NCBI GenBank assembly: GCA_963728565.1
Contig: CAVSLC010000018.1
Span: 32,001-96,000 of the forward strand
Direction of reading: 5' to 3'
DNA length: 64,000 bases
Source: an uncultured delta proteobacterium
GTDB lineage: Bacteria; Desulfobacterota; Binatia; UBA9968
In this document: positions 4,305 to 60,171 of the stretch, one piece after another
How the letters are laid out: every line of letters starts with the position of its first letter
Position numbering within the stretch: position 1 is the stretch's first letter
Notes under the pieces: model-generated
What the model saw: the letters and a program-made list of their open reading frames with translations, nothing else
The model's database searches: none
Told to the model about the DNA's origin: nothing
Made by a program: the position numbers and the translations under genes

Positions 4305-5312
4305 TTACCTACCTGCCGATGCACCGAATATGCGCGGAAAGAGCTTTCTCACATTGCCCTCGGTAATTTTGTATCTCTCTTCCTGGGTGAGCCAATCAAT
4401 TTCCTGAAAAATCGGCACGAGGTCCTCGAAGTTTCTGCCGGTCATGGGATCGATGGCATTAACGGCGCCGAACATCTCAGTGGCAAAAAGCACGTTATCG
4501 GCGCCTACCCGCTTGATTAGAAGCTCCATCGATTCTTTGTCGTAGATCGCCATGTCCCAATAAACTCGCCGCGCCGCTTCCTCGAACGGCTCAAGCCCTT
4601 CCTTTACGTGCATGCCGCGATTGCGATTCCATTGGTACGGGACGGCGCCGCCGCCGTGCGGAATGATGATCTTTAATTTTGGAAAATCTTTGAACACGCT
4701 GGATTTGAGCAGCTCGATGGCGGCCGAGTTGTGATGAGCAAGATAATAAGAATTTGTAAGATGCATTGCCGGATTGAGCGAAGCGCTGGCATGGATCGTA
4801 CACGGCACGTCGAGTTCGACCATCTTTTCCCACAGGGGATACCACCAGTCACTGCCGAGAGAAGGCGTCAGAGGTTCGCGTCCCCCGGCAACATCGGGGT
4901 TAACGTTGCAACCGACGAATCCCAATTCTTTAACGCAACGGTCAAGTTCATCGACCCATTCCTTCGGGCTGACATCCGGCGATTGCGGCAACTGGCATAC
5001 GGCGGAAATCTTATCCGGCCATAACCGCGCAACGCGCGCGATGAGATCGTTGCACGCCTCTGTCCAGTAGCGGCTAACGAGGGGCGAGCCGAAATGATGG
5101 CCCATCGCGGAGGCTTGGGGAGAAAACAGAAGCCGATCGATACCGGATTCTTTCATTCGCTTGAACTGACCTTCCATTGAGCGTGCCAGAACCTCATCGC
5201 TGATCTGTAACTTTGCTGGTATGGGCTTCCCTAGATGCGTGATCTGCTGGCCGCGGTACGCCTGCAGCTGCGCTGGAGCAGTGGTGTAGTGGGTGTGGGC
5301 ATCGATGATCAT
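4305..5312 (-). CDS. ligJ: Amidohydrolase-2 family, LigJ-like 4-oxalomesaconate hydratase
   Basis: MIIDAHTHYTTAP, FSPQASAMGHH, ELGFVGCNVNPD and IIPHGGGAVPY resemble LigJ; SD GGAAGGAG before ATG 5312. Confidence 0.7.
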   Translation of the reverse strand: MIIDAHTHYTTAPAQLQAYRGQQITHLGKPIPAKLQISDEVLARSMEGQFKRMKESGIDRLLFSPQASAMGHHFGSPLVSRYWTEACNDLIARVARLWPDKISAVCQLPQSPDVSPKEWVDELDRCVKELGFVGCNVNPDVAGGREPLTPSLGSDWWYPLWEKMVELDVPCTIHASASLNPAMHLTNSYYLAHHNSAAIELLKSSVFKDFPKLKIIIPHGGGAVPYQWNRNRGMHVKEGLEPFEEAARRVYWDMAIYDKESMELLIKRVGADNVLFATEMFGAVNAIDPMTGRNFEDLVPIFQEIDWLTQEERYKITEGNVRKLFPRIFGASAGR

Positions 5313-5416
5313 GAGGTGGCTCCTTCCTATATTTTCCAAAGGCGAATCGGTTTGTCTGACATAGAGCCCTTTGCTATACAACTGGCGCAAGCAACGATAC
5401 CAAGGAGTACGGTGTC

Positions 5417-6285
5417 ATGTCAGACATACCCCGCTTAAACGGCGTAATCAAAGCCCTCGAGCAAGGCCATACCGCCTTCGTTTCATTTTGCCCGGTCGAT
5501 ATCGAAAGTGCCGTCGCCATGGCGGGATCGCAGCTCGATGGCGTCGCATTTGAAATGGAGCATGGCCCCCTCGATTTCCCCGGTTTACGCCAGGCTCTGC
5601 AGTTCATGCTCGACCGGCGTCAGATCGTCGAACAAGCAACGTTAGCTCCCGCGGTCACGCCTATGGTGCGTATTCCGCCCAACGGCGGCGAGCACAATCA
5701 ATGGATCGCTAAGCAGGTGCTCGATATCGGCGTTTTTGGAATCATTTTCCCGCACGTCAGCTCTGTCGAGGAGGCCTGGAACGCCGTGTGCGCATGCCGC
5801 TATCCGCGTCTCGCTACAGTTCCGCGCTACGACCCAGCCGGAATTCGCGGTGACGCGCCGGCGCGAGCGGCGCGCTATTGGGGTTTAACCCAACAGGAGT
5901 ATTACCAACGGGCCGACGTGTGGCCATTGGCACCGCACGGAGAAATTCTCGTCATCATTCAATGCGAAGATACGCGCGCCATCGATAATCTTCCGAAGAT
6001 TCTCAAGGAGGTGCCCGGCATCGGCGTTGTTTTGATAGGCGAAGGCGATTTAAGCCAGGAGTTGGGCCATCCGAGAATTACGAGCATCCGGTTGTGGCGG
6101 ACGCGATCGATAACATTCTCAAAATTTGCAAGGAGCACAACGTACCGTGCGGCCATCCTCACCCAGACTCGCATAATATTGAGCGGCTGGTCGCCTGCGG
6201 CTATCGCTTCCTGATGCCGTCTGCGCCGCGATCCTTCAATGTTCTCGAACTTGGCCGCAAGCTCGCCGGCAGAACTGCCGGTTGA
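5417..6285 (+). CDS. HpcH/HpaI aldolase family protein; single frameshift near 6075
   Basis: EMEHGP, KQVLDIGVFGIIFPHV, IGEGDLSQELG; C-terminus (HPVVADAI...CGHPH) continues in the frame of ORF 6094-6285. Confidence 0.85.
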
Positions 6286-6316
6286 ATCTCGTCGATAAAA
6301 AATAAAACTGTGCAGT

Positions 6317-6637
6317 TCAATATATCTGACTGATTGACCGCAAGAGCTTGCTATAAGAGACGTTGCTTGAGGATTGCCCATAAGGGACGTGAAGGACGAG
6401 GCACTTTGCGCGGCCGCCAGTCTTGATAAACTCGCTCAGAGGAATTCGAAGGCCGAAAATCCCAGCGCCTGCAACTGGCTGCTGATTCGAGGGCAGCCGT
6501 GATTCATGATTACATTTTTCTCCACCACAATATTGCTCTTGAGCCAGTAAGTATCTGCTCGGGCGACTGCGATTCATCCCGGGATTGATCTCGTACTCGA
6601 TGCCGTAAAAGGCAGGCGGGCACATCAACATCCCCAT
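6317..6637 (-). pseudogene. Internally deleted amidinotransferase/DDAH-like remnant
   Basis: N-terminal LMCPPAFYGIEYEINP joined by ~35 aa to C-terminal LSEFIKTGGRAKCLVL; family members are much longer. Confidence 0.7.
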
Positions 6638-6790
6638 ATGAATATTTTACCGCCCTATCGTTCGGGAGAGACGAAAGCGGCCACATCTAACGGAATCGCA
6701 CCTACGATCAGGTCTACGTTGACAGCGGATTCTTATGTGATAAGAGGCACGACATCTTGCTGAAGGCAGGCTGCCTGCTGGGGTGACAAC

Positions 6791-7156
6791 ATGAGACTAC
6801 TACGTCGGCTGATTCGTGGCCTGCTTGCATTAACGATTTGTCTGATTTCCGTTCCGCAAAAACTAAATTCTCACGGCGGAGACCCTGACCTGATTCACGC
6901 CTGCATCAACGATAAGGGGATCGTTCGGATTGTTCGTCCCAAGGATGAATGTGCCAGATCGGAAACGGCGCGTCACTGGATACGAGTTCGACCGGGGGAG
7001 AAGCCGCCGCGCGACCGCAATGTGTCCGACGGCAAGTTAGCGTCGGTAGAGTTGTTGGACTTAGCCGTAGGTCTCGCATACACCCGGCGCGGGCTCGCGG
7101 AAAGTAAGCTGTTGTTCGCGGAACCATCGCGGAGCTTGCCACTTCCCAGTGACTGA
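6791..7156 (+). CDS. Small secreted hypothetical protein
   Basis: Signal-like N-terminus; HGGD..IHAC...GIVRIV....C...E....W module typical of N-termini of exported proteins. Confidence 0.55.
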   Translation: MRLLRRLIRGLLALTICLISVPQKLNSHGGDPDLIHACINDKGIVRIVRPKDECARSETARHWIRVRPGEKPPRDRNVSDGKLASVELLDLAVGLAYTRRGLAESKLLFAEPSRSLPLPSD

Positions 7157-7375
7157 GCTCGATGATACCTCGCGCCCCCGCGTTCGGAATAGCGCTATCT
7201 TCGGATAGTAGTTTTTTGGCGGCGCTTATGGCCCCTGCGGCCTTAAACTTATGCTGACGCGGCTAAGATTATCGAGCGCGCAGGATAAACACTGCCGTCC
7301 CGCCCCTCGTTTGTTTACACAGATCCGGGTTTCGAATAATACATCAGACATCTAGGCTCGACATTAGGAGGTGCC

Positions 7376-8406
7376 ATGATTTACACCCGCATTTGCGATT
7401 TGCTTGGCATCGTTCATCCGGTCGTTTTGGGGGGATGGGAACTGCGACCACCGCGCCGCTCGTCGCTGCCGTATCCAATGCCGGCGGTTTCGGTACTCTG
7501 GGCACGTCTGCCTTCAATGCCGCAACCCTTGATACGGAAATCGCGTCGATCCGTGAGCGAACCGAAAAGCCATTCGGCATCAATCATCTGCTCTTTCAAA
7601 TCCAGGAAGATATGTTCACGGTTACACTGAGCGCTAAACCGACGGTGGCCGCGTTTGCCTGGGCTCGCAGGGATCAGAACCTGCGTGAATATTTTCAGCG
7701 GGCTCACGATGTTGGATCTAGGGTCATGTACATGGCGGGTGAAGTTCCTGAAGCTCTCCGTGCCGCAGACGCCGGGGCGGATGTGATCGTGGCGCAGGGC
7801 ACAGAAGCCGGAGGGCATGTGGGTTGGATGGCGTCCCTGCCGCTGCTACCGATGATGGTCAAAGCCGTAGCGCCGTTACCAGTTCTCTGCGCGGGTGGCA
7901 TTGCCGATGGCCGCGGGCTTGCTGCGGTGCTGGCGCTTGGCGCCGAGGGCGTACTGCTCGGCACCCGTTTTATGGCCACGCCGGAGGCGCCGATTCACCC
8001 GAACTTCAAACAAGCGATTGTTGAAAGCGACGGTCACGACACCGTGCTGACGGAAATTCCTGATCTCGCCAGTCAGCGCGTCTGGCCCGGAGCAATGTCG
8101 CGAGCTCAGCGCAACCGTTTCATCGAGCGCTGGTCCGGACGCGAATGGGCGCTGCGACAGAATGCCCAGGACGTTGGCCGGCAGGTTGCGGCTGCCCGCG
8201 CTGCCGGCGATATCAATAATGCCTCGCTTTCCTTCGGTCAGGATGCGGGCTTGATCGGTTCCATCAAGAGCGTACGGGAAGTAATTCAAGACATCATCGG
8301 CGAGGCGGAGAATATCATCAAAGATCGATTGCCCGGCCTTGTGCGCCAGAGCGGAGAAGCGAACAAGTTAGATAGCGGCAAAAAGACTGCGTCAAAAGGT
8401 TCGTAG
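7376..8406 (+). CDS. Nitronate monooxygenase/FabK-like flavoprotein; frameshift in the G-run at ~7429-7434
   Basis: MIYTRICDLLGIVHPVVLGG (SD AGGAGG) joins MGTAT..AAVSNAGGFG, QGTEAGGH, AGGIADGRG, GTRF. Confidence 0.9.
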
Positions 8407-8547
8407 TAACCGCACCGATTTGCCTGGACGTTTGATGGGTGCGGGCGAGGCAGTGAAGAACAGTTCTTCGGCGGACAGAAGTTCAACACTGCGCTCTACC
8501 CGACGAGTGGCTTAAATACTCGCTGGTTCAGCTGAACATGGCAACGA

Positions 8548-8787
8548 TCAACGTGATCTAAAGGCCCCCCGGGTTTTACCTATTTTCAACCAATCAGGTG
8601 ACTCTTCCAAATGCGCCGACTGGCATCGTTCATCACGATGCTTTTGAATACAGCTCAAGCAGAAGCCGATCACCGGCGAATCAGCGATCTCCTCATAGTA
8701 GCGTAGCGGCCAATTCTCGCATTCTCTGCAGAAGTGCCAGATGTCGGTCAGGTTAGACTTTCGATAAAAGGTTCTCAAATCGGACAT
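8548..8787 (-). CDS. Cys4 (WHFCxxC...CxxC) microprotein, paralog A
   Basis: 79 aa; SD AGGAG; motif shared with the paralog at 11683 despite divergence. Confidence 0.75.
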   Translation of the reverse strand: MSDLRTFYRKSNLTDIWHFCRECENWPLRYYEEIADSPVIGFCLSCIQKHRDERCQSAHLEESPDWLKIGKTRGAFRSR

Positions 8788-8812
8788 GCGAGCTCCTGAT
8801 CAGCAGGGTCGA

Positions 8813-8998
8813 TTACGAGCCACAGGAGAATGGAGCGGCGATGCAATCAACGACTTTGCTCCAGCTTCCCGCCAGTTCATCGCCAATGTTAGTGCTTCTC
8901 ATGCCGCCCCAGAAAACCAGGGCCACCAGAAATACGATCAAGGTATATTCCATCAATCCCTGACCGCGCTCATTACGCAAGTTCTTTAGTGGTTTCAT
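8813..8998 (-). CDS. flp: Flp family (Tad) pilin, copy 1
   Basis: ERG|QGLMEY prepilin cleavage motif (E+5, Y+6), hydrophobic helix, 61 aa; SD AAGGAG. Confidence 0.9.
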   Translation of the reverse strand: MKPLKNLRNERGQGLMEYTLIVFLVALVFWGGMRSTNIGDELAGSWSKVVDCIAAPFSCGS

Positions 8999-9051
8999 GA
9001 CTTTCTCCTTTGTTGCTTTTGCGACGTTGTGGTATCACGACGCGGCATAGC

Positions 9052-9066
9052 GCAACTCTAATGCCA
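9052..9066 (-). promoter_or_regulatory. sigma54 -24/-12 promoter for flp copy 1
   Basis: TGGCAT-TAGAG-TTGC on the minus strand, GG-N10-GC spacing. Confidence 0.8.
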
Positions 9067-9119
9067 CAAAGCAAGCTCTTGAGATGTTTGAAGACTTGGT
9101 GGTAGGGCAATTGTATTTT

Positions 9120-9164
9120 TGCCGACGTTGACAAAAATCAATTGAAGACTTGTCAGATTCGGCA
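9120..9164. promoter_or_regulatory. Paired enhancer-like sites TGYCR-N4-YGRCA
   Basis: TGCCGACGTTGACA (9120-9133) and TGTCAGATTCGGCA (9151-9164), 31 bp apart, upstream of the sigma54 promoter. Confidence 0.6.
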
Positions 9165-9522
9165 CCTGGGCGTGAGGATTAGCGTGCTTCGAGAAACTGT
9201 TAAGTAGCTTTACGCTGCGCTTGATACCGCAGGTTGTCTGAAAAATTGACCGGCTTCATTAGGAATGCTCCCGCTATGCTGGGAGATCGAGGCTTACACC
9301 TTGAAGCGAAATCAGGGTCGTAGAAAAATCTCTTTGTAAGCAGTGACCTTGAGGACCGCGCAGATCTAAAGGTTGGATATCAAAAGCATCATCGTACTCA
9401 CAAAGTAGCCGATAGCCGGCACCACCAGGACACTACTAATTCGCGGAGAGATCCGTTAATTGGTCATCAAACTCCAGCTCATCAGAGACTAGCATTTGGT
9501 CGCCATGCTCGTGAACTGCCAG

Positions 9523-11004
9523 TCAGCGCGGTGTCACCAGCGAGCCAGCCAAAGAATGGCCGGCAGAAAGCGCAGTCACTCTTTGCTTAAAGGAAGCTTT
9601 ATCGATTCCATATTCGCGCATCTTACGAGAAAGGGTGCGCACGCCGATCCGGCAGCTCTTTGCGGTGAGTCCGACGTTGCCGCCGAAATCATCGAGTTTT
9701 TGCGCCAGATACTCCTTTTCTTTTTCCTGCAGCCATTGGTTGAGCGGGGCGTTAAAGGCGTTGCCGCCGCTGCTTGGATGCGCCTCAAAGCTGACTTCCG
9801 GCAGATCGACGTGTTCGATGGTTCGGCCGGTGTTGAGAACGATGGCGCGCTCGAGAACATTTTGCAGTTCGCGAATGTTGCCCGGCCAGGAGTAGTCTAG
9901 CAGCCGACGCATCGCTTGCTTGGAAATCGAGGTGATCCCCTTGCCCGCGGCCACCGGATGGCGATGGAGAAAATCCTGAACCAATAGGGGAATATCCACC
10001 TTTCTCTGCTGTAACGGGATCAGGTGGATCGGGATGACATTTACCCGATAATAAAAATCCGAGCGCATTTTGCCTTCGGCGACAAGCTGCTTGAGCGGCA
10101 CATTGGTGGCCGTGATCACGCGCATGTCAACGTGGATATCGGCGCTGCCACCGAGCCGCTGAACCTTCTGATCTTCCAGCACCCGGAGCAATTTGCCCTG
10201 CATGACCACTGAGATGCTCTCGATCTCATCGAGAAACAAGGTGCCGCCGTGGGCTAGCTCAATCTTTCCTGCTTTGGCTTGTACCGCGCCGGTAAAGGCG
10301 CCGCGTTCGTATCCAAAAAGCTCGCTCTCGAGCAGGGATTCGGGAAAGCCGGCGCAGTTAATCGTGACAAACGGTTTGTCGCGCCGCCCGCTATGATAAT
10401 GAACCGCGCTGGCCACTAACTCCTTACCGGTGCCGGTTTCTCCTTCGATGGAGACCGTCATCTCGGTGGGCGCTACCATGCGGATGATTTCGAACATCCG
10501 ATGCATCTCGGCCGTTTTGCTGAGCATGCCGCCAAACTCAGAGCCATTCTTAAGACCCCGACGCAGATGGCGAATCTCCATGTAGACCCGGGTCTTCTCC
10601 AGAGCTAAACGCGTCGATTCCTGTACCGTGCCCAGATCGAACGGCTTGACCACAAAATCGGCCGCGCCAAGTTTAAGAACGTTTATCGCGATCTCGATAT
10701 TCGAATGCGCCGTGACTGCGATCACCGGAACATCAGGAGAATTCTCCTGAATGTGAGCTATCAGCTCGATACCGCTCATTCTCGGTAAATTGATCTCGGT
10801 AATGACGAAGTCTATGTTTCTCTCGGTCAGCAACCCTAAGGCTTCTTCACCCGAACTCACCCCGACAACGATATAACCGTTATCGAGATATAGCCGCATC
10901 ATGAGCTCACGGGCGACAACATCATCGTCAACCACAAGAAGTTTGGGTGTCATTGCGTTCGCCGGAGGGCCGCTGATCAGGCGTGCAGGAGATGTACTTA
11001 TCAT
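9523..11004 (-). CDS. sigma54-dependent activator (NtrC/PilR family: receiver, AAA+, Fis HTH); start uncertain (11004 or 10953)
   Basis: GETGTGKE, ESELFG, GAFTGA, LFLDEI, WPGNIRELQN and C-terminal HTH; receiver reads FVITE rather than VITD. Confidence 0.95.
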   Translation of the reverse strand: MISTSPARLISGPPANAMTPKLLVVDDDVVARELMMRLYLDNGYIVVGVSSGEEALGLLTERNIDFVITEINLPRMSGIELIAHIQENSPDVPVIAVTAHSNIEIAINVLKLGAADFVVKPFDLGTVQESTRLALEKTRVYMEIRHLRRGLKNGSEFGGMLSKTAEMHRMFEIIRMVAPTEMTVSIEGETGTGKELVASAVHYHSGRRDKPFVTINCAGFPESLLESELFGYERGAFTGAVQAKAGKIELAHGGTLFLDEIESISVVMQGKLLRVLEDQKVQRLGGSADIHVDMRVITATNVPLKQLVAEGKMRSDFYYRVNVIPIHLIPLQQRKVDIPLLVQDFLHRHPVAAGKGITSISKQAMRRLLDYSWPGNIRELQNVLERAIVLNTGRTIEHVDLPEVSFEAHPSSGGNAFNAPLNQWLQEKEKEYLAQKLDDFGGNVGLTAKSCRIGVRTLSRKMREYGIDKASFKQRVTALSAGHSLAGSLVTPR

Positions 11005-11304
11005 TTGATGTATTACCTTAGAATTGAAATATTTGTCATAGCACGACAAAAATACAGCGCTGTCAGCATCTGCAAGAAGCAATCCACAGCTGCCCTTAGA
11101 TCATTAAATAATAAATATTGTAGGATGATCAAAATCGAAAAACAGATACATATTAAGCGAGTCGAATCTAATTGACTGCACCAGCATGGCGTTACCATAA
11201 CATTCGCATCTCGCGAGGGAACTAATAAGCTCCTCGCGCCGCTATCGATTCCACGCCGGAATCAGTTACATAACTTGCTCAAAGACACAAAAGTTATAAG
11301 GTGG

Positions 11305-11349
11305 TGCCGAATCTGACAAGTCTTCAATTGATTTTTGTCAACGTCGGCA
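11305..11349. promoter_or_regulatory. Paired enhancer-like sites TGYCR-N4-YGRCA
   Basis: TGCCGAATCTGACA (11305-11318) and TGTCAACGTCGGCA (11336-11349). Confidence 0.6.
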
Positions 11350-11402
11350 AAAATACAATTGCCTTACCTCCAAGTCTTCAAACATCTCAAGAGCTTACTT
11401 TG

Positions 11403-11417
11403 TGGCATTAGAGTTGC
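11403..11417 (+). promoter_or_regulatory. sigma54 -24/-12 promoter for flp copy 2
   Basis: TGGCATTAGAGTTGC, ending 55 bp before the flp ATG. Confidence 0.8.
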
Positions 11418-11471
11418 GCTATGCCGCGTCGTGATACCACAACGTCGTAAAAAGCAACAAAGGGGAAAGTC

Positions 11472-11657
11472 ATGAAACCACTAAAGAACTTGCGTAATGA
11501 GCGGGGTCAGGGATTGATGGAATATACCTTGATCGTATTTCTGGTGGCCCTGGTTTTCTGGGGCGGCATGAGAAGCACTAACATTGGCGATGAACTGGCG
11601 GGAAGCTGGAGCAAAGTCGTTGATTGCATCGCCGCTCCATTCTCCTGTGGCTCGTAA
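11472..11657 (+). CDS. flp: Flp family pilin, copy 2 (protein identical to copy 1)
   Basis: Same G|QGLMEY motif; one synonymous difference. Confidence 0.9.
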   Translation: MKPLKNLRNERGQGLMEYTLIVFLVALVFWGGMRSTNIGDELAGSWSKVVDCIAAPFSCGS

Positions 11658-11682
11658 TCGACCCTGCTGATCAGGAGCTCGC

Positions 11683-11928
11683 ATGTCCGATTTGAGAACC
11701 TTTTATCGAAAGCTGCCGCACGAGAATGTATGGCACTTCTGCAGGAAATGCGAGAACTGGCCTCAGTTTGGATACGGTGAACGCGACGATACGGATCCCC
11801 ATTCGGTGATCTTCTGCTTCCGATGCATCGAGCATCATCGTACAAGCCCGTGCGAATGGCTTCACTTGGAATTGTCCCCGGATCCGCTGTCTCTGCGAAG
11901 CGTCAGAGGGGCGACCTCGTTTGTCTAA
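11683..11928 (+). CDS. Cys4 microprotein, paralog B
   Basis: MSDLRTFYRK...WHFCRKCENWP...FCFRC; 81 aa. Confidence 0.75.
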   Translation: MSDLRTFYRKLPHENVWHFCRKCENWPQFGYGERDDTDPHSVIFCFRCIEHHRTSPCEWLHLELSPDPLSLRSVRGATSFV

Positions 11929-11946
11929 AGCTATGAAGGAATTCCA

Positions 11947-12309
11947 ATGAAGAAGATTTTGATCGCCGATGACTATCCAGACATGCGTGAATTGCTGGGC
12001 AGACAGATAGAATCTCTGGGCTTCGTTCCAATTCTGGCTGAAAACGGTAAGGACGTTTTAGAGAAAGCTATCCGTGAGAAACCGCAGTTGATACTACTTG
12101 ATATGATCATGCCGATAATGGACGGTTGGGAAGCCGTCCGAAGTTTGCGGGCCAATCCTGAAACCAAGGACATACCGATTTTGGCAGCAACGGCGTTATT
12201 TCACCAATCGGATCTCAACACCTGCATAGAACAAGGTTGCGACGGCTACATCAATAAGCCGTTTACCATCGTGGAACTTAAAAAAAAGGTCGAGGAACTT
12301 ATTCGCTAA
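11947..12309 (+). CDS. Single-domain response regulator (CheY/DivK-like)
   Basis: ILIADD, ILLDMIMP (Asp intact), ATA, INKP. Confidence 0.92.
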   Translation: MKKILIADDYPDMRELLGRQIESLGFVPILAENGKDVLEKAIREKPQLILLDMIMPIMDGWEAVRSLRANPETKDIPILAATALFHQSDLNTCIEQGCDGYINKPFTIVELKKKVEELIR

Positions 12310-12374
12310 ATGAACGGGCAACCGCGGGCGGTGTCCTGTGTTGCAGTGTATAGATAAACGATCGGCTACGAAGA

Positions 12375-13376
12375 TCATTTATAAAGCTTATCGACGAATC
12401 CTGACTTACCGAGTTCCATGAGTATGGAGTTGTCGATGAGACTTTCTGGCTTGGCCGCTTTGGCGTTCTGATGCGACGCGAAGTTAAGCATTGTTTGTAC
12501 GGCCGCAGCCGGGACCATGGGAAGCCGTTCCCAAGCGGGTACAAATGCTTGATAAGAACTTTCCAAGTCTGCCGCATCGGTTGTCTTGGTATACTTGCCG
12601 ATCATCTGTTTGGCGAAATCCGCGTCAGTGAGAGCGGTTTTAATGCCCTCGAGATATGCCTGCAAAAACCGCCGCGCTAAATCAGGATGGGTCTTGAGAT
12701 AATCTCTGGTTGTTGCTAGAGCCGCGTGGATCATTGGAATATTCTTCTCCGTCACATTCACCAGTTCTTTCAGTCCTGCGGTGCGCGCTTTCAAAGTTGT
12801 TGGCGCTGTAAAGATTCCCGCCACGGCGTTTCCCTGGTTTATTCCCGCCAAAATTTCCGGCATTCCCCTGAGATAAAGAAGCTTGACATCCTTTCCCGGC
12901 GCCAAACCCGATTGTTGGAGCAGCACACGGGCGGCGAAATCAGTGGTCGCGCCGGGCACGGTAACGCCCAGGACTTTGCCTTTTAGGTCGGACATCGAGT
13001 TGATCTCCGGCTTTGCATAGATCGACATCACGGCTCGATTGAGAATTCCCGCGATGAATACCACCGGCTCGCCATTCAATCCTGCTTCGACGATCTCACC
13101 GCCCGGATTGATAATATCAAGGTTCTTGGCCAGCAGTGCCTGAGTCGCGGTGGCCGGCGCGATGTATCGTAGGTCGACATTCAAGCCGTATTTAGTGAAT
13201 AAGCCTCTCTCCGTTGCAATCCACAACGGCGCGAAGGCGCCGCTAATGGCTGCATAGTTAGCGCGTACCAGGGGCATCTCAGCCGCGCGAGCTGCACCGG
13301 AACCGGTGAGAATGTAAAATAGTGACAGCAGAACTGCCGATCCGCAGGCTCGTACCGAGATTCTAATTACCCTCAT
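12375..13376 (-). CDS. NMT1/THI5-like substrate-binding protein
   Basis: Signal peptide; APLWIATERGLFTKYGL; DLKGKVLGV. Confidence 0.88.
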   Translation of the reverse strand: MRVIRISVRACGSAVLLSLFYILTGSGAARAAEMPLVRANYAAISGAFAPLWIATERGLFTKYGLNVDLRYIAPATATQALLAKNLDIINPGGEIVEAGLNGEPVVFIAGILNRAVMSIYAKPEINSMSDLKGKVLGVTVPGATTDFAARVLLQQSGLAPGKDVKLLYLRGMPEILAGINQGNAVAGIFTAPTTLKARTAGLKELVNVTEKNIPMIHAALATTRDYLKTHPDLARRFLQAYLEGIKTALTDADFAKQMIGKYTKTTDAADLESSYQAFVPAWERLPMVPAAAVQTMLNFASHQNAKAAKPESLIDNSILMELGKSGFVDKLYK

Positions 13377-13509
13377 TTGGCCTCCGCGTTCCTAACGATC
13401 ATTTTATCTAAGCTCTATCACAAATCGGTTTCTCGTCAGTATTGCCATGAAACGTCAAGTCGCGATTTTTACCTGCAATCCAAGATGCGACTCGGGTGCA
13501 ATAACAGCA

Positions 13510-14508
13510 TTATTGCTTATATAATTGTTTGATAAAGCCGGTGGCTTCGATTTCTTGCACCAAACTCATATCGACGAACGCCTTAGGATCGGCCGTCGCC
13601 GCCTTTGGGTTTCGTGGCGCAAGGTCGTCCAGCATGGTTTTGACGCCATCCGGAGTGGGAAGCAAATTTTCCGGAAAAACGGAGACATAAGCTTGGTAGG
13701 CTCTTTCAAGACCTTCTGGATCGGTGAGCTTGAGATTTTTGCTGTAGATCGCCTTGGTTCCTTCTCTGTCGTTTTTGATGTAGTGAATGGCTTCCATCAT
13801 TGCGCGAGAAAATTTCGTCAACACCGCTCGATTTGACTTCACGGCCGACTCTTTGGCGAGAACAGCATTCCACCAGAACGGTATTTTTAATGACTGGATA
13901 TCGAACAGATCTTTGAACCCTAACTTCTCAGCTTCACGGACAAAAGGCTCCGGCATGATGCTGAACTGAATGATCCCGCGAGAAATCGCCGCCAGTCTCG
14001 CCGGATTGTCTCCGGCGGTAATAATCTTGACGTCTTTTTCCGGATCAATCCCCTTCCGGCGCAGCGCCAGCCGGAGCCCCAAATCCGAAGTGCTGCCGAG
14101 GCGGTTTACCCCGCCTGTCTTACCCTTTATCTGCTCGAGAGTCGTAACGCTCGGATGGGAGATGATGTGATCTAGGAAAGTCGGTACCATTCCTAGAATC
14201 ATCACGATATCGGCCCCTGCCAGGCGAGAGAGGGCGAGCGTAGTGACGGAAGTTACGATCACATCTACTTCGCCAGCAAGCAAAGCCTGTAGCGCAATCG
14301 GGCTTGCGGAAATACTGATCACCTCGCCGTTAAGTCCGTGTTTCTTGAGCAACCCTCTTTCTTGAACCACCCAAATCGGGCTATTTGCCGGACTCACTCC
14401 AGCCCAGGCGATCCGAATTCTTTCCTGTGCGAGGGCCTGATCTCTTTCACCTGAGAGAACGACCAGAGCAGTGAGTAAGACTAAAACAATCCGTCTTAAA
14501 GATGCCAT
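13510..14508 (-). CDS. NMT1/THI5-like substrate-binding protein
   Basis: Signal peptide; PIWVVQERGLLKKHGL; GIDPEKDV. Confidence 0.88.
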   Translation of the reverse strand: MASLRRIVLVLLTALVVLSGERDQALAQERIRIAWAGVSPANSPIWVVQERGLLKKHGLNGEVISISASPIALQALLAGEVDVIVTSVTTLALSRLAGADIVMILGMVPTFLDHIISHPSVTTLEQIKGKTGGVNRLGSTSDLGLRLALRRKGIDPEKDVKIITAGDNPARLAAISRGIIQFSIMPEPFVREAEKLGFKDLFDIQSLKIPFWWNAVLAKESAVKSNRAVLTKFSRAMMEAIHYIKNDREGTKAIYSKNLKLTDPEGLERAYQAYVSVFPENLLPTPDGVKTMLDDLAPRNPKAATADPKAFVDMSLVQEIEATGFIKQLYKQ

Positions 14509-14564
14509 GATTTAAGCTCCCAACTTCAGTGATGTCACGCAGGTCGTGTTACATCGAAAAGCGC

Positions 14565-15374
14565 TCAGACTCTCTGCTCCCATTTCAACAGTGATAAAAA
14601 ATTGCTCGAGAAAACTTTTCTCAAGTCCTCCTGATTGAGTTTGGCGGCCCGGGTTACGTGTCTCGATATTTTTTCAACTTCCATGGACAATGGATTGTAA
14701 GGATGATCGGAGCCAAAGAGGATCTTGCTTGTGCCAACGCCGCGAAAGGCCTCGAGCAGCAGCGGCATCCAACCCACGACTGACGTTTCCAGAAAAATAT
14801 TTTCATTCTGCCGAGCCACCGCCACCGCCAACTTTACATATTCCGAAACACCCATGTGGCCGAGAATAACCGGGACATCTTTATACTTGGCGGCGAGCTC
14901 TGCGATAACCCCTGGTGATGCCTTGCTCGACATTCCAGTATGGAAAATAATCGGCACATGATAGCGCCGAGCCGCAGCATAAATCGGCTCCATTAACTCC
15001 GCTTCGTTCGGATCGAAGAACTCGATCTCCGGATGGAGTTTGATTCCCTTCAGTTTGAGATTACCCAGGCAATGCTCCAGCGCATCCGCCGAAGCCTGCG
15101 GGCCAAAATTAGGATTGATCCTGCAGAAACTGATGATACGTGTGGGATGCTTGGCCATTTCCTCCGCCATGATTTGGTTTGCCTCTGAATAGTCCGTGTA
15201 TGAAGCTCCCAGAGGAAAGGCCACGGCACAATCGAGGCCTGCTTCGTCGAGATTACGGACTAAATCATCGCCAAGAAAACTCGCCACTCCGTGGCCCAAT
15301 GGGGTTTTGCGCCGCCCCAAGTGAGAATGGGCGTCGACCGCGTAATATTCAGAATCGTTAATGCGTAAAGCCAT
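14565..15374 (-). CDS. Amidohydrolase-2 family protein
   Basis: DAHSH, GIKLHP, IFHTG, LGHMG, LFGSDHP. Confidence 0.9.
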   Translation of the reverse strand: MALRINDSEYYAVDAHSHLGRRKTPLGHGVASFLGDDLVRNLDEAGLDCAVAFPLGASYTDYSEANQIMAEEMAKHPTRIISFCRINPNFGPQASADALEHCLGNLKLKGIKLHPEIEFFDPNEAELMEPIYAAARRYHVPIIFHTGMSSKASPGVIAELAAKYKDVPVILGHMGVSEYVKLAVAVARQNENIFLETSVVGWMPLLLEAFRGVGTSKILFGSDHPYNPLSMEVEKISRHVTRAAKLNQEDLRKVFSSNFLSLLKWEQRV

Positions 15375-15720
15375 TTAAGATCTCCTTCATCCGACTAGGA
15401 CGCCGTGATCAACGCTTCATACGAATGTCGCGTCATCTGAAAATTCCTACCGACCTAAATTATCGGATTTGAACTCAACAAACCATTGGGACGGTTGCGG
15501 GCAATCGGCAGCAACTATTGCGCCAGCTCTAATATGGTTCATAAGCCCTGTCAACCAATGGGAGTTTGGCGCTCCTGGTTTGCTTGTGCAAATGTCTTTG
15601 AATCGATCCTGATGATCCGGCCGAGCGCTCGCCCGGGAACTTGGCTGATGAGAGAAGTTTTTGTGGTGTCATAATCAGCGAAATTCTAGCCGGCAGCTAC
15701 TGGCGACGCTTGAGAAAAAC

Positions 15721-16491: not shown

Positions 16492-16938
16492 ATGAAAAAC
16501 AAGACAATGGAACAAAAAGAGACCCATCTAGAAGAAGAACAACAAGAGAAAAGCTTCAGCGCAGAGGATCGCTTGAGCCCATTGTTCCAGCCCGACACTT
16601 TAATGTCGGACGAGTACTTCGCAAACTACCGGAGAAGGATTCCTTTGGAGCCGGAGAAAACCTTGCTGCTGGCCGTTTTGGAAGACGGAGTGCGCACCTT
16701 TCAGGACAATATCTGTGCTGAGACCGGCAAGAAGCGCGTGCTGCTGGACGAAGCCCGCGAGTGGCTTTTCAGCGACGGCTTTGAGCACGTTTTTTCGTTT
16801 AACTCAGTCTGCTCTTCGCTGGGAATTGATCCGGGGTACATCCGTCGCGGCCTGAAGCGCTGGGAGGAGCACACGCGAGCTGCAACAAGGAAGAAGCAGC
16901 GAGTATCCCAAGCTGCTCCTGAACGTCTGGTAGCCTAA
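16492..16938 (+). CDS. Conserved hypothetical protein (FQPDTL..PEK.LLLAVLED..EAREW..FSF..VC..LGIDP.YIRRGL)
   Basis: Motif pattern recognised from a hypothetical family recalled as common in Binatia-like genomes; SD GAGG. Confidence 0.75.
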   Translation: MKNKTMEQKETHLEEEQQEKSFSAEDRLSPLFQPDTLMSDEYFANYRRRIPLEPEKTLLLAVLEDGVRTFQDNICAETGKKRVLLDEAREWLFSDGFEHVFSFNSVCSSLGIDPGYIRRGLKRWEEHTRAATRKKQRVSQAAPERLVA

Positions 16939-18117: not shown

Positions 18118-21100
18118 GCTTCTCGGAGTTATTCATTCGCCGGCCGGTCATGACGATGGTCTTGACCGTGTCGGTGGTTCTCTTTGGGATTCTCAGTTAC
18201 CTGCGTCTTCCGGTCAACGATTTGCCCGCAGTGGATTATCCCGTCATTCAGGTTCAAGCGAACTATCCGGGCGCCAGCCCCGATACCGTGGCGAACAGTA
18301 TCGCTACGCCTCTCGAGCGTCAGTTCATGCAGATCAACGGGCTCGAGCTGGTGATATCGAAGAGCACCCAGGGACATACCAGCTTGACTTTGCAATTTGC
18401 GTTGGACAAAAGCGTCGATGTAGCGGCCACCGACGTCCAAACGGCAATATCACAGGCCACCGGCAGTTTGCCGGTGGATCTACCTTCGCCACCGACATAC
18501 TCCAAGACCAATCCTAACGATCAACCGATCATGTATATTGCGCTGACCAGCGATTCCGTCACCGTGGGTCAGCTCTACGACTATGCCAGCACTCAAGTAG
18601 GCCAGCGCATTAGCATCCTGCCGGGGGTCAGCCGGGTCAATGTCTTTGGCGCCAAGTCGGCAGTGCGCATCAAAGCCGATCCGTCCGCCATGTGGGCCCG
18701 CGGCATTTCCGTTGAGGATCTCGCTGAAGCGATTCGCAACGGCACCAGCACCATCGGCGCGGGGCAATTCGACGGCTCCGGCGGAACGTTACTGCTTCGC
18801 CCGCAAGGTCAATTGGACGACGCCAAAGAGTATGGCGATCTAATCGTCAGCAGCAAGAACGGCTCGCCGGTTTATTTGCGCGATGTCGCGCAGGTAAAAA
18901 ATTCGGTCCAGGATGAGCGCATCAACATGCGCTTCTGGGTGCGCGGCTATGATCCGCCCGCAGCCACGGTAATTGTCGCGGTTAACCGGAAAGCGGGAGC
19001 CAATGCGGTGGAAGTGGCTCAAAGCGTTCGCCAGCTGCTGCCGCTGATCAGCACCGAGTTGCCGGGATCCGTGAGGGTGACTCCGATCTATGATCGTTCC
19101 CAGACGATCATTCACTCCATTCTCGACGTCCAGTTGACCTTGGCCATCGCCTTCGCGCTGGTGGTACTCGTCATATTTGTCTTTCTCGGCCGCGCCACCG
19201 ACACTTTGATACCCGCGGTGGCTTTGCCGTTGTCCTTGCTGATCACATTCGTGGTCATGGACCTGCTGGAATTCAGCCTTGATAATTTATCGCTCATGGC
19301 CCTCACCTTGGCGATCGGTTTTCTGGTCGACGATGCCATCGTTTTTCTTGAAAATACCGTGCGTCGGATGGAGCACGGCCAAAAAGCTCTCGAAGCAACC
19401 ATCGCCAGCGCTCGAGAGATCAGCTTCACGATCATCTCGATGACCATTTCGCTTGCCGCGGTTTTCATCCCGCTGGTCTTCATGCCGGGACTAGTCGGAC
19501 GGATCTTCCGCGAATTCGCGGTCACTATTGTCGTCGCCATCATCGCCTCGGGCTTGGTTTCGCTGACTTTGACCCCGCTGATGTGCGCTCGGATGTTAAG
19601 CGACCGCGGCAAAGGTTCCAAGCAAACGTGGATGGAAAGGAAGATGAGCGCTTGGGAAAAAAGGTTCCTCGACCGCTATAGCCGCGCCCTCTGGTGGTTT
19701 CTGCGTTTTCGTTGGGTCTCGGCGCTGATCTGGGTTGTTTGTCTGGCAGGTACGGTCTGGCTTTTCATGCTCGTTCCCAAGGCTTTTCTGCCGGCTGGGG
19801 ACAGCAGCTTTATATTCGGGTTGATGATCGGCCGCGAAGGGTCCTCGCCAGGGCAAATGCACCAGCTTCAGAACCAGGCCGACGAAATTCTCCGTGCCGA
19901 TCCAGGTGTCAGAGCCACTTTTACCATGACTGGTAACGGCCAGTTTCTCGCCTCGAACCAGGGCCTGCTCCTGGCGTTTCTTGAAGAACCCGGCAATCGC
20001 GCGCCGATCGAGGATGTAGCCGGGGGGTTGATGGGGAAACTGGCGACGGTGCCGGGGGTGATGCCGTTTATGCGGCCACGTCCGGTGCTCGAGATCAGCA
20101 CCGGCGCGACCAACCAAAATCAGGGGCAGTACGCATTCTCGCTCTCCGGTGTGAACCCCAAGCAAGTTTACGATGTCGCCGGCAAGCTGATGGAGCGTTT
20201 GCGGCCGTATCCGGGCTTTGCCAGTTTATCTTCCGACTATTTCAACAATACGCCGAACCTCGACATCGAAATCAAGCGCGAGGAGGCGCGGCTGCACGGA
20301 GTCTCAGAGGCGCGCATTCTTCAGTTGCTGCGCAGTGCCTATGCACAAAACTATCTTTATCTAATCAAAAAACCCGAAGATCAGTATCAGGTCATTCTGG
20401 AAGCCGAGGATGCGGCTCGCTCTGAAGCGCAAGATCTATCCTTGCTGCACATTAAATCCGACGACGGCAAAAAGCTTGTGCCACTGAACACATTGGTTAC
20501 CTGGAAAGAATCGCTGGGCCCGCAGGCAGTGAATCATCTCAATCAGTTCACCAGTGTCACTCTGTTCTTCAATCTCAGACCGGGAGTCGCAGTCGGCGAA
20601 GCCACAGATTTCATCAACAAAGCGGCGGCAGAAATTGTGCCGCCTACTGTCCGCGCCAGCCTGCAAGGTGAAGCGCAAACTTTTCAGGATACGGTGCGGC
20701 ATTTAACCCTGTTAATGGCCCTGGCTGTATTTGTCATGTACGTAATCCTGGCAATTCTTTATGAAAGCTACTTGCATCCTCTAACCGTTTTATCCACTTT
20801 GCCCACCGCATTGGTGGGAGGTCTGTTAACCCTGTGGCTTTTTGGCGAACAAGCATCGCTCTATGCGTTCGTCGGCATGTTTATGTTGATGGGCATCGTT
20901 AAAAAGAACGGCATCTTGATCGTTGATTTCGCTATCCATCGAGTTATCGCCGGCGAACGGGCCGACCAAGCGATTCACGATGCCAGCCTGGACCGTTTCC
21001 GTCCTATTCTGATGACGACCCTGGCCGCGGTATTTGGCGCGCTGCCGATTGCCTTGGGCATCGGCGCCGACGGCGCCTCGCGCCGGTCGCTGGGGCTGGT

Positions 21101-29963: not shown

Positions 29964-30761
29964 ATGTCTTTGTTGAAGATTGCTACCTGGAACGTCAATG
30001 GCATTCGCGCGCGCGAAGCCCAGGTGCTCGAATGGGTCGAGCGCGAGCGACCGGACGTTGTCTGTCTTCAGGAATTGAAATCGACCGTGGCGCAGGTTCC
30101 CGCGGCGCTTTGCGAGCTGCAGGGCTATCGATGCTACTGGCATGGCGCGCGCGCTTATTCGGGAGTCGGTCTGCACATACGCCGCGACGCTTTTGCCGAG
30201 GAGCCGCGCTTCTTTCATCCTTCCTTCGATTTCGAAACCCGTGTGGTCGCAGCGCAAATGGACGATCTGGTGGTGGTCTCGGCTTATGTTCCAAACGGCG
30301 GTAAAGATTTTGCGGCAAAAATGCAGTTCCTGCGCGATATGGAAAACTATGTTGACGAAGTTCACGCCAGTGGCGCCCGGCTGGTTTTCTGTGGCGATCT
30401 CAACATTGCGCGAAGCGAGCGCGATGTGCATCCGAAGGAGCGAAATCCCGCGATCATCGGGCAACGGCCGGAGGAGAGAGAATTGTTCGAGCGAATTCTT
30501 AATCATGGTCTTGTGGACGTTGGACGGGCGCTTGATCCGGATAATGAAAACCTTTTCACCTGGTGGGCGCCGTGGCGTCGCATGCGCGAGCGCAATATCG
30601 GCTGGCGGCTCGACTACGTTCTCGCCACCCAGTCTCTAGCAGCGCGCGCTTCGCAGTGCTTGGTCTATCGTGAAATCGGCACCAGCGATCACGCGCCGGT
30701 GGTCGCGCTATTCAATCTCGATGATGATACCGGTGAAACGGTGATGGTAGAACCCGTATGA
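29964..30761 (+). CDS. xth: Exodeoxyribonuclease III
   Basis: ATWNVNGIRAR, CLQELK, YVPNG, GDLNIA, GWRLDY, SDHAPV. Confidence 0.95.
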   Translation: MSLLKIATWNVNGIRAREAQVLEWVERERPDVVCLQELKSTVAQVPAALCELQGYRCYWHGARAYSGVGLHIRRDAFAEEPRFFHPSFDFETRVVAAQMDDLVVVSAYVPNGGKDFAAKMQFLRDMENYVDEVHASGARLVFCGDLNIARSERDVHPKERNPAIIGQRPEERELFERILNHGLVDVGRALDPDNENLFTWWAPWRRMRERNIGWRLDYVLATQSLAARASQCLVYREIGTSDHAPVVALFNLDDDTGETVMVEPV

Positions 30762-31417
30762 AAAAAGATCGTGCGCAGCCGGACGATCTGAGCCACTTCG
30801 GCAGGCTGGCAGAATACAATCGCAAGCGTCACTTCGGTGTCACCCCGGAGCCCCAGGGCAAGCCCGGCCGGCCAAACAGGAAAACTTTAGAATTCGTCGT
30901 TCAAAAACACCGCGCCAGCCGGCTGCACTATGATTTTCGTTTAGAGCACGAGGGGGTCATGCTCTCATGGGCAGTGCCAAAGGGCCCATCCACCGATCCG
31001 GCGAACAAGCGATTTGCAATGCAAACCGAAGATCACCCGATGGAGTACAACCAATTTGAAGGCGTAATCCCGGAAGGGGAATACGGCGGCGGCACCGTAA
31101 TGATTTGGGACCGAGGCACGTGGGAGCCCGAAGTGGATGATGTCGAGAAGGCGCTCGCCAAAGGCGACCTGAAATTTAAACTTAACGGGAAGAAGCTGCG
31201 CGGCTCCTGGGTGCTCGTGCGCATGCGGCCAAGGCAGTGGTTGTTGATTAAGCACCGTGATACCGCCGCCTCTGAGGAGGACATCACAGACGCGAAACCC
31301 CGTTCCGCTGTATCTCGTCGAAGCCTAGCAGGAATCGCGCGCAAGGCGGGCGCAACTCCTCGACAGCTGGCGCAAGCAGAAGAAGCAGACCGATCTGCGT
31401 CAATACCAGCCGAATAA
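30758..31417 (+). CDS. Stand-alone LigD 3'-phosphoesterase (PE) domain protein
   Basis: FVVQKHRASRLHYDFRLE, SWAVPKGPS, TEDHP, YGGGTVMIWDRG, WLLIK. Confidence 0.92.
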   Translation: MKKDRAQPDDLSHFGRLAEYNRKRHFGVTPEPQGKPGRPNRKTLEFVVQKHRASRLHYDFRLEHEGVMLSWAVPKGPSTDPANKRFAMQTEDHPMEYNQFEGVIPEGEYGGGTVMIWDRGTWEPEVDDVEKALAKGDLKFKLNGKKLRGSWVLVRMRPRQWLLIKHRDTAASEEDITDAKPRSAVSRRSLAGIARKAGATPRQLAQAEEADRSASIPAE

Positions 31418-41630: not shown

Positions 41631-41756
41631 GCAGGCTGCAAAAAAGGCCTCAGAGACAAGGCGCGCGAAGTTCGATGAGCTGAGGCGTACACTTCAGTAC
41701 GTTGAAGCGAATCGGGCGAGCGCAACGAAGTATATGAGGCCTTTTTTGCAGCCTGC
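41631..41756. mobile_element. 126-bp MITE with perfect 22-bp terminal inverted repeats
   Basis: GCAGGCTGCAAAAAAGGCCTCA ... TGAGGCCTTTTTTGCAGCCTGC; non-coding and intergenic. Confidence 0.8.
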
Positions 41757-58864: not shown

Positions 58865-59148
58865 TTAAGCGAGCGCAAACGCGTTGCTTTAAAGTTGCGA
58901 AAAACAAAATCGCTGCGAACATTGTCGCGATGGACCTGTCTCATGGTTTCTCGCTTATGCGCGATCGAAGCCGACGACCCGCGCACACGTTTTGACGCCC
59001 GTGGCAGTATGCTAAGGCGACACAACAGGAGTTGCTTGTCGTCGTCCGAGTGAATGTGCAGCAAGGGTTATCGAGAAATCCGGTTCGATAGGACGCTTGG
59101 AACCATCGCTTAGCGAATGACACAGTCTAAAGTGGGAAAAGGATAACC

Positions 59149-59937: not shown

Positions 59938-60171
59938 TCGCACACAGGTTAGATCCGGGCTGGCCGGCGTGAGTACCACGGCTGGAGATGGCCGGCGTCA
60001 TGGCATCGTCGGATGATCCAGCGAGAGTCGAAGTCAGCGCAGAGTTTTCACTACCGGAGTAGAGTAAACACTACCCTTCGGGTGTGAAGTCGCCTCCCAA
60101 ATCACATCCTTGCTGTTTCAGATTCCTTGCTCATCCAAGGCCTTACTCCATCGAGATTGATCTTGTCTGAG

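Follow-up and report, generated by a model that had tools for sequence, protein, structure and literature searches.

Within a 64,000-nucleotide stretch of contig CAVSLC010000018.1 from an uncultured member of the Binatia (hereafter the window), two nearly identical inverted copies of a pilin expression unit flank the gene of a sigma-54-dependent transcription activator. We call this arrangement the cassette. The favoured explanation, to which we give a probability of about 0.68, combines a history of homologous recombination between repeated tracts with an activator that would bring a second, kinase-independent input to a Flp/Tad pilus regulon. The recombination history taken alone is very probable. 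The source genome is designated G000 (28 contigs, 80.6% complete, 4.5 Mb), and the window is part of its contig C18; G001–G007 are congeners of G000, L073–L078 are metagenome contigs and X1 is an independent soil run. The features of the cassette, in window coordinates, are as follows.

8548–8787, minus strand: Cys4-L, 79 amino acids (aa), of a family with the pattern WHFCxxC...WP...CxxC; its first ten codons lie in the left arm (open reading frame (ORF), alignment).
8758–9166, minus strand: left arm of the inverted repeat, a homogenised tract (repeat finder, alignment).
8813–8998, minus strand: flp-L, a 61-aa Flp-type prepilin, identical in protein sequence to flp-R (ORF, Pfam, alignment).
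9051–9066, minus strand: left sigma-54 −24/−12 site, with a transcription start predicted near 9040 (motif).
9120–9164, minus strand: left enhancer-like element, ending where the arm meets the interior; it comprises two 14-nt palindromic sites 31 nt apart (motif, conservation).
9167–11302, no strand: invertible interior, 2136 nt, reversed in G005 (repeat finder, genome comparison).
9523–11004, minus strand: sigma-54 enhancer-binding protein, 493 aa, with a receiver, an AAA+ domain with GAFTGA and a Fis-type helix–turn–helix (HTH) (Pfam, alignment).
9615–10669, minus strand: second homogenised tract, about residues 112–464, with 2 differences in 1055 nt from the paralogue on contig C10 (alignment).
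10795–10797, minus strand: codon 70, encoding Glu at the phospho-acceptor position, normally Asp (alignment).
11303–11712, plus strand: right arm of the inverted repeat, a homogenised tract (repeat finder, alignment).
11305–11349, plus strand: right enhancer-like element, 14-nt palindromic sites at 11305–11318 and 11336–11349, 31 nt apart (motif, conservation).
11403–11418, plus strand: right sigma-54 −24/−12 site, with a transcription start predicted near 11429 (motif).
11472–11657, plus strand: flp-R, a 61-aa Flp-type prepilin (ORF, Pfam, alignment).
11683–11928, plus strand: Cys4-R, 81 aa (ORF, alignment).
11947–12309, plus strand: single-domain receiver protein, 120 aa, Asp intact (ORF, Pfam).

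The repeat finder reported the arms as two inverted pairs, 8758–9020/11450–11712 (263 nt, 99%) and 9017–9166/11303–11452 (150 nt, 97%). The other 11 inverted pairs listed for the window are all 25–33 nt long, which makes the arms its sole long inverted repeat. On alignment, 7 of 410 columns are mismatched, all of them at 11364–11504 (right-arm coordinates), in the inner half. The preliminary description, drawn from the letters and their ORFs, had proposed outward-pointing arms of about 98 per cent identity, and these are borne out. Reading outward, each arm carries the order that it had listed: two palindromic sites, a sigma-54 site, the Flp prepilin and the first ten codons of a Cys4 protein; the sigma-54 and enhancer anatomy is backed by conservation. 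The interior contains one gene, that of the activator. Pfam scans covered 57 of the 58 non-overlapping window ORFs of at least 110 aa (the excluded one is an antisense frame over flp-R), and they agree with the earlier statement on the neighbourhood in that no tad/cpa gene, peptidase A24, kinase, recombinase or transposase was found. In the scan of 50 ORFs, the strict cut-off of 1e-12 left nine without a match. A search of Rfam over 8000–13000 returned no match, and scans for sigma-70 promoters and terminators gave chance levels.

The arms are more alike within a species than between species. Within-species identity is 98.3 per cent in G000, 100 per cent in G005, 97.0 per cent in G006 (304 nt) and 98.9 per cent in G004 (179 nt); between species it is 84–96 per cent over longer stretches and 81–95 per cent over the last 178 nt. 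Informative sites inside the arm are divided between species-linked and side-linked as 14/0 (G005), 37/0 (G006) and 15/0 (G004), that is, 66 against 0 in three comparisons that all share G000. Just beyond the arm, the corresponding figures are 0/73, 3/56 and 0/75, and DNA identity of the two sides (the Cys4 genes) is about 51 per cent. Synonymous flp changes are common to both arms of a species. The grouping by species inside the arm and by side outside it implies that the duplication is old and that the tract has been repeatedly homogenised. In contigs L073, L074 and L077, which represent a lineage further removed, the arm extends inward by about 30 nt more, a shift that would fit homologous exchange and not site-specific exchange. 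The unitigs of run X1 break at 9137, 9615–9644, 10640 and 11332, which are the predicted repeat ends. The genome encodes recA; there are nine tyrosine-recombinase (integrase) matches, none on C18, and the search for serine and Piv-type recombinases was confined to the window. With recA present and no recombinase nearby, we infer homologous exchange, which would yield conversion without crossover and inversion with crossover, and which presumably depends on RecA. The substitution pattern thus indicates that the arms evolve in concert by homologous recombination. The starting point would be an old inverted duplication of the expression unit (two activator sites, sigma-54 promoter, flp and Cys4 start) around a duplicated sigma-54 activator, which probably arose in a sub-lineage of one Binatia genus.

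The inversion of the interior, put forward earlier as a possible outcome of recombination between the arms, is supported by these concerted arms and by a reversed interior between the same flanks in the congener G005 (30 contigs). There, window positions 5000–9166 and 11264–15601 match on the plus strand and 8708–11762 on the minus strand. The flip lies inside a block that is otherwise collinear with G000 C18 for about 100 kb and then continues into C10. The contigs of the fragmented congeners end inside the arms; G004 and G006 show both flanks in this way, and G001 only the right one. In five of the eight genomes of the genus, the cassette is present whole or as broken ends; it was not found in G002, G003 and G007, where the flanking genes are scattered. 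The single-domain receiver gene behind Cys4-R is kept in G001, G004, G005 and G006, and it is probably co-transcribed with flp-R and Cys4-R. At the level of the family, a seven-row flp profile has matches in 52 of 90 genomes, and close inverted flp pairs on one contig were found only in G000 and G005, although fragmented assemblies would hide others. Tandem pairs of flp on the same strand occur in two other family genomes (G014 C13:36219–36647 and G077 C31:97191–98498).

Population reads were compared as short-read contigs from four of 24 runs, and no contig piece from these four runs spans the cassette. Orientation in the metagenome contigs (L073, L074 and L077 suggesting the flipped state; L078 suggesting that of G000; L075 and L076 uninformative) was discarded as evidence, three of the contigs being chimeric through the activator tract. 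Their joining of parts of the cassette with parts of a second activator locus (its twin on contig C10, described below) makes short-read orientation untrustworthy; the joins may be assembly chimeras or real recombinants.

Such contigs raise the question of whether the whole pattern could be an artefact, with repeat collapse or polishing making the copies alike and one of the orientations a misjoin. None of the read pieces spans both arms, the G005 arms are 100 per cent identical and both assemblies contain homopolymer-type indels. However, collapse requires prior near-identity, and just outside the tracts identity is about 51 per cent for the arms and about 63 per cent for the receiver. Private arm differences have also been kept (7 in G000, 9 in G006 and 2 in G004), the pattern recurs in four genomes and in the unitig breakpoints of the independent run, and G000 and G005 are highly contiguous. 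An artefact is therefore very improbable.

Crossover between the 410-nt arms reverses the interior, as seen between the two species, and gene conversion keeps the arms alike, as seen in the sequence pattern. Because the enhancer and the promoter lie inside each arm, the flip is probably nearly silent for pilin expression: both pilin promoters would be left intact, and the main change would concern the flank into which transcription of the activator gene reads through. We take the flip itself as a probable by-product. A selected, recombinase-free phase switch would instead use the flip to set whether Cys4-L, or Cys4-R with the receiver gene, obtains read-through or extra upstream elements, as a form of bet-hedging. 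Both orientations do occur in nature, and the downstream operons differ, with Cys4 proteins that are 52 per cent identical overall and a receiver gene behind only one of them. Terminators in the stretch from the activator stop to the arm are not above chance (6 found against 4.2 expected over the region). Pieces from RNA runs that are 93–94 per cent like the window cover 8708–8869, 9064–9202 and 11562–11817; the second of these lies upstream of the predicted start and would speak for a switch, but all may derive from DNA and they were not counted as transcription. Against a switch, enhancer, promoter and pilin would be little altered by flipping, the seven differences gathered by the G000 arms, in the inner half only, suggest that exchange is not rapid, and plastids with repeats of 399 and 440 nt had one orientation in the data given in PMC7145664. 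We regard a selected switch as having a slight chance.

Flp prepilins have a short leader ending in Gly, followed by Glu at +5, Tyr at +6 and a hydrophobic stretch, in a total of 50–80 aa. The cassette pilins show this motif: G12, E17 and Y18 are invariant in all seven aligned rows, and the length is 61 aa. The match to Pfam Flp_Fap falls below the cut-off (15 bits, E 0.022; cut-off 32.2), and the pilin heading the tad operon, 62 per cent identical to the cassette pilin over 52 aa, itself has no Pfam match at 0.01. That operon, located on contig C28, supplies the tad genes that were to be sought elsewhere in the genome, and the set is complete: peptidase A24, RcpC, secretin, ATPase, two T2SSF, two TadE and a TadG-like gene. 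It lies at 94.7–105.1 kb (L101:8678–19093) with its own flp, and its secretin is split into two ORFs, possibly by an assembly frameshift. A second set, made up of two TadE-like ORFs and one TadG-like ORF by resemblance only, is found apart from it at C28:57560–59658. There is also a third, orphan flp on contig C13 (233944–236271; L103:1945–4269), 81 per cent identical and preceded by a sigma-54 site, with no arm enhancer; it is divergent from a single-domain receiver gene and has a 188-aa ORF without a Pfam match behind it.

The sigma-54 consensus used is GG-N10-GC. The pattern occurs 129 times in the 4.5-Mb genome, or about 0.0014 times per 100 bases of one strand, and the motif is kept before every flp gene with an aligned promoter (G000 C13 and C28, G001, G002 and G007). 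The enhancer motif, TGACA-N16-18-TG(A/T)CA-N4, is found at three places only in G000, namely in both arms and in the tad operon promoter, against 0.33 matches expected per shuffled genome; it was defined post hoc from the very sites that it matches. It also precedes flp genes of G001, G002 and G007, and it is absent before the C13 flp and before the single flp of G007. Looser versions of the motif show no clear enrichment before 222 sigma-54-like sites (7 against 3.1 expected). The sites contain TGTC, as do PilR sites in Pseudomonas. The inner edge of the arm is 2 nt outside the distal palindromic site, which makes the homogenised unit equal to enhancer, promoter and pilin together. The gene rpoN was not found in G000, which is 80 per cent complete, and was found in all seven congeners. 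The cassette had been interpreted as a self-contained regulon, and this part of the preliminary description has to be given up: the pilins depend on the tad genes of C28, which have the enhancer motif in their own promoter, rpoN lies elsewhere and the output domains of the activator are shared with a kinase-linked twin on C10.

The cassette activator, with a likely ATG start at 11004, has the NtrC-type architecture of a receiver, a sigma-54 AAA+ domain with GAFTGA and a Fis-type HTH. It reaches no NCBIfam cut-off; the best match is AtoC (412 of 714 bits), and no PilR model is among the best 25 of 121 matches. No kinase was found by Pfam beside it or elsewhere in the window. The twin, with Asp intact, is situated behind an adjacent PAS histidine kinase gene and before RsbR/STAS stressosome-like genes; its locus (G000 C10, about 8250–14400; L102:3639–7602) is preceded by a UDP-sugar dehydrogenase gene, and a sigma-54 site is present before its operon in nine of nine genomes. 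In G005, the cassette activator and the twin lie on one contig, about 167 kb apart. A further paralogue with Asp intact, 71–73 per cent identical in DNA, is carried by G005 and G002 (L033:6663–7971 and L034:600–1878).

The two genes share a second homogenised tract, 9615–10669, absent from the preliminary description, which comprises the end of the receiver, the AAA+ domain and the HTH; residues of about 112–464 are identical in G000. Paralogues differ in this tract at 2 (G000) or 3 (G005) of 1055 nt, an identity of 99.7–99.8 per cent, and orthologues at 22–25, and the informative sites inside it are 21 species-linked and none locus-linked. In the receiver DNA just upstream, 104 of 284 nt differ between the cassette activator and the twin. 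This distribution of sites indicates that gene conversion keeps the output module alike in the two copies, while the first 110 residues diverge. The cell would then have two activators with one output and two inputs. Other near-identical repeat pairs in G000 are possible further conversion tracts: C9:43330–44295 with 59087–60053, C5:286957–287622 with C21:92062–92728, and C9:71263–71842 with C15:28330–28911 (580–970 nt, 94–99.5%), among 24 pairs of at least 300 nt listed.

The inputs differ at the phospho-acceptor, a point that the preliminary description also lacked. Position 70 is Glu in the cassette receivers of G000 and G005 and Asp in all nine twin-type or other paralogues aligned. A survey of receivers gave 101 database matches, of which 87 were aligned (14 with another domain make-up were excluded) and 39 placed in a tree. 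The cassette-type clade (support 100/99) has 21 rows, many of them near-duplicates and not independent, the protein of the window being included; position 70 is Glu in 12 and Asp in 9, with nothing else, and the tree requires at least three changes between the two. The other 66 rows comprise 64 with Asp, one with Glu and one with Gly. Between G000 and G005, the cassette receiver has nine non-synonymous and five synonymous codon changes, and the twin has one and 11 (Fisher p 0.005). Glu can mimic phosphorylation, and D54E activates NmpR (PMC6211767). Glu is also the commonest natural substitution at the phospho-acceptor in the aspartate-less receivers covered by PMC4395418 (26%). Two near-identical cassette activators, L074:1613–3082 and L077:210–1691, form a natural Asp/Glu allele pair. 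The cassette copy, with its fast-evolving receiver and Glu at position 70, would most likely give kinase-independent or otherwise uncoupled activation. We consider it rather probable that the targets of this activator are both arms together with the remote tad operon, all of which carry the enhancer motif; the supply of major pilin to the Tad machine encoded on C28 would then be doubled. That the enhancer element is bound by the cassette protein, favoured by position, and by the twin, favoured by HTH identity, is likewise rather probable.

The same receiver data could describe a passenger, that is, a decaying duplicate whose core is repaired by conversion from the twin; in that case, the twin or some other enhancer-binding protein would drive the arms and the tad operon. 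The relaxed codon ratio, frameshifting deletions in one X1 contig and the near-identical Asp and Glu alleles are what decay would leave; the activator pieces in two RNA runs have the 3′ end of the twin (loose ends at 9598), and in G002, which lacks the cassette, the enhancer motif is still present before a single flp. Yet all 21 cassette-type rows, whose receivers are 69–100 per cent identical, keep the Thr and Lys switch residues and a nearly unchanged acidic pocket, and position 70 is limited to Asp or Glu, in a search that returns intact ORFs only. The unique 5′ and 3′ sequences of the interior are moreover 75–90 per cent conserved across lineages. Constraint on the cassette receiver is thus relaxed and not gone, and we think a pure passenger unlikely, while granting it appreciable weight.

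Another possibility is a damper, in which the unphosphorylatable Glu form, with the same AAA+ domain and HTH, would join mixed rings with the twin, or occupy the enhancer, and thereby lower or buffer pilin transcription. The identity of residues of about 112–464 in both activators would permit this. In the pair RedR1/RedR2, an inactive partner uses the identical central domains to inhibit the active one (PMC10084136), and Glu is often not enough for activity in the cases given by PMC4395418. A damper could, however, equally use Asn, Ala or Gly, which the same source reports as common in aspartate-less receivers, and here Asp and Glu alone occur, with at least three changes between them. This is improbable. 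The passenger, the damper and the phase switch all accept the same recombination history, and they partly overlap.

Several observations count against the favoured explanation. Each orientation of the interior is represented by one assembly (G000 or G005); three of the six metagenome contigs (L074, L076 and L078) join parts of the cassette and of the twin via the shared tract; and the shared unitig of X1 has a depth of 29, against 17–29 for the unique parts, and is thus not doubled. For the receiver, besides the redundancy of the clade rows, one X1 contig carries frame-breaking deletions of 1, 2 and 1 nt at window positions 10721–10882, near-identical proteins with Asp (L074) or Glu (L077) fit decay as well as adaptation, and an Asp-to-Glu change alone is often not activating, as stated in PMC4395418. 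For the regulon, in addition to the post hoc origin of the motif, the palindrome before the operon of the twin is loosely conserved, with a strict match in one of nine genomes. Autoregulation through a palindrome at about 11032–11050, before the cassette activator, was considered and rejected, as this palindrome is not conserved. Finally, G000, at 80 per cent completeness, encodes about 17 such activators, and the motif could belong to another of them than the one in the cassette.

With the recombination history and the two-input activator retained as the favoured explanation, the locus is an unusually clean natural case of nested gene conversion. Its two tracts have sharp edges that follow function, one corresponding to a complete promoter-plus-pilin unit and the other to the output module of the activator. 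Should the activator reading be right, the regulon would gain a second, kinase-independent input without drift of DNA-binding specificity, and the Asp/Glu alleles would allow phosphomimicry to be tested directly. The analysis further yields candidates for a Flp/Tad regulon and its enhancer in a soil lineage that is abundant and uncultured, and it warns that short-read assemblies of these organisms yield chimeric activators. A more ambitious version would see a selected control unit, in which conversion locks the outputs, the receivers specialise as kinase-gated and phosphomimetic forms, mixed rings act on a three-promoter regulon and a RecA-driven flip switches the activator-coupled Cys4 operon; we lend this little credence. 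The locus is more interesting for its evolution than for the flip, and it is so far known from part of one genus.

The Cys4 proteins share their first ten codons through the arms, and beyond the arm Cys4-L orthologues are 87–96 per cent identical in nucleotides in G004, G005 and G006. In a family alignment of 105 rows, C20, C23, C45 and C48 are at least 90 per cent conserved, forming two CxxC pairs, and Trp-His and Trp-Pro pairs are also conserved. The family has four copies in G000, matches in 47 of the 90 family genomes and 223 clusters at 50 per cent identity. The structure model used has a predicted local distance difference test score (pLDDT) of 77.6; an earlier one from 15 rows (pLDDT 52.5) was too poor and was left unused. 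No Pfam family was matched by more than four of the 105 members at E 0.05, searches of NCBIfam and PDB sequences gave no named relative, and the Atlas contained unnamed clusters only, with recognition below threshold. Fold searches returned no clear match (N-Ada: Z 2.3, root mean square deviation 3.0, 45 aligned; Foldseek E 2.7). A small zinc-binding domain is likely. Among 28 Cys4 loci and three flp loci outside the cassette, none has flp and Cys4 together within the stretches examined. Since Cys4 is found apart from flp in congeners without the cassette, the pairing would be recent and a role in piliation is doubtful. Two more paralogues are located on contigs C25 (L104:1326–1553) and C2 (L105:1557–1739) of G000; the C2 copy has receiver-domain genes on both sides, a setting shared by several copies in other genomes.

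Elsewhere in the window, two short ORFs near the cassette (6791–7156 and 16492–16938; 121 and 148 aa) have no Pfam match. A gene for a stand-alone LigD 3′-phosphoesterase domain is found at 30758–31414, behind an endonuclease/exonuclease/phosphatase gene, and an AMP-binding enzyme at 47275–48851 is divided into two ORFs, possibly by an assembly frameshift. A 31-nt dispersed repeat resembling repetitive extragenic palindromes occurs at 20439–20470, 59036–59066 and 59656–59686, and a 27-nt inverted pair (93%, 72 nt apart) at 41631–41756.

Duplicate bacterial genes are well known to evolve in concert, for example tuf, rrn and flaA/flaB. A literature search, incomplete for subscription journals and without supplements, returned nothing on this cassette or on Binatia pili, and nothing on conversion between sigma-54 activator paralogues or confined to their output domains. 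In the sap system of Campylobacter fetus, inversion moves one promoter among divergent silent cassettes. As here, the genes for the surface proteins lie in opposite orientation and recombine in their conserved 5′ regions; unlike sap, each arm of the cassette has its own sigma-54 promoter and the surface protein is identical, so that no antigenic switch is possible. Site-specific invertons such as fim, hin and piv have a dedicated recombinase close by, and no recombinase was found in the window; their repeats are short and have a fixed crossover site, whereas the 410-nt arms are homogenised throughout, with an inner boundary that shifts by about 30 nt between lineages. In Moraxella bovis, two different type IV pilins are swapped by the dedicated Piv invertase. 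The invertible segment there is likewise next to two pilin genes (PMC11868660), but the cassette has identical Flp pilins, an interior formed by the activator and no recombinase nearby. The cassette is thus neither a site-specific inverton nor a promoter switch of the sap type.

Plastid flip-flop recombination shares gene-carrying inverted repeats, two orientations of the interior and homogenised repeats, and the account in PMC7145664 names no dedicated recombinase. The plastid repeats described there are 10–30 kb long, whereas the cassette lies in a bacterial chromosome and has arms of 410 nt and an interior of 2.1 kb; plastids with repeats of about 400 nt had one orientation (PMC7145664), and the cassette has two, known between species only. 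Control of pilA by PilS/PilR in Myxococcus is similar in its NtrC-type activator and in the sigma-54 promoter before the pilin gene (PMC6211767). The cassette differs in having a Flp and not a type IVa pilin, no adjacent kinase, an activator that reaches no family cut-off and two mirror-image targets.

The closest parallel for the activator and its twin is the pair RedR1/RedR2 of Aromatoleum anaerobium, sigma-54 activators that are identical in the central domain but controlled differently, one of them being constitutive, which are thought to derive from a duplication (PMC10084136). That pair has GAF-PAS input, lies in one gene cluster and has demonstrated hetero-oligomers (PMC10084136); the cassette activator and its twin have receiver input, lie more than 100 kb apart and are known from sequence. 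The term gene conversion is absent from the text of PMC10084136 as available, whereas for the activator and its twin conversion is seen across species. Like aspartate-less receivers and engineered D54E activators (PMC4395418, PMC6211767), the cassette copy has Glu at the phospho-acceptor; unlike them, it belongs to a single young clade that switches between Asp and Glu alleles, and its receiver is grafted onto a core maintained by conversion.

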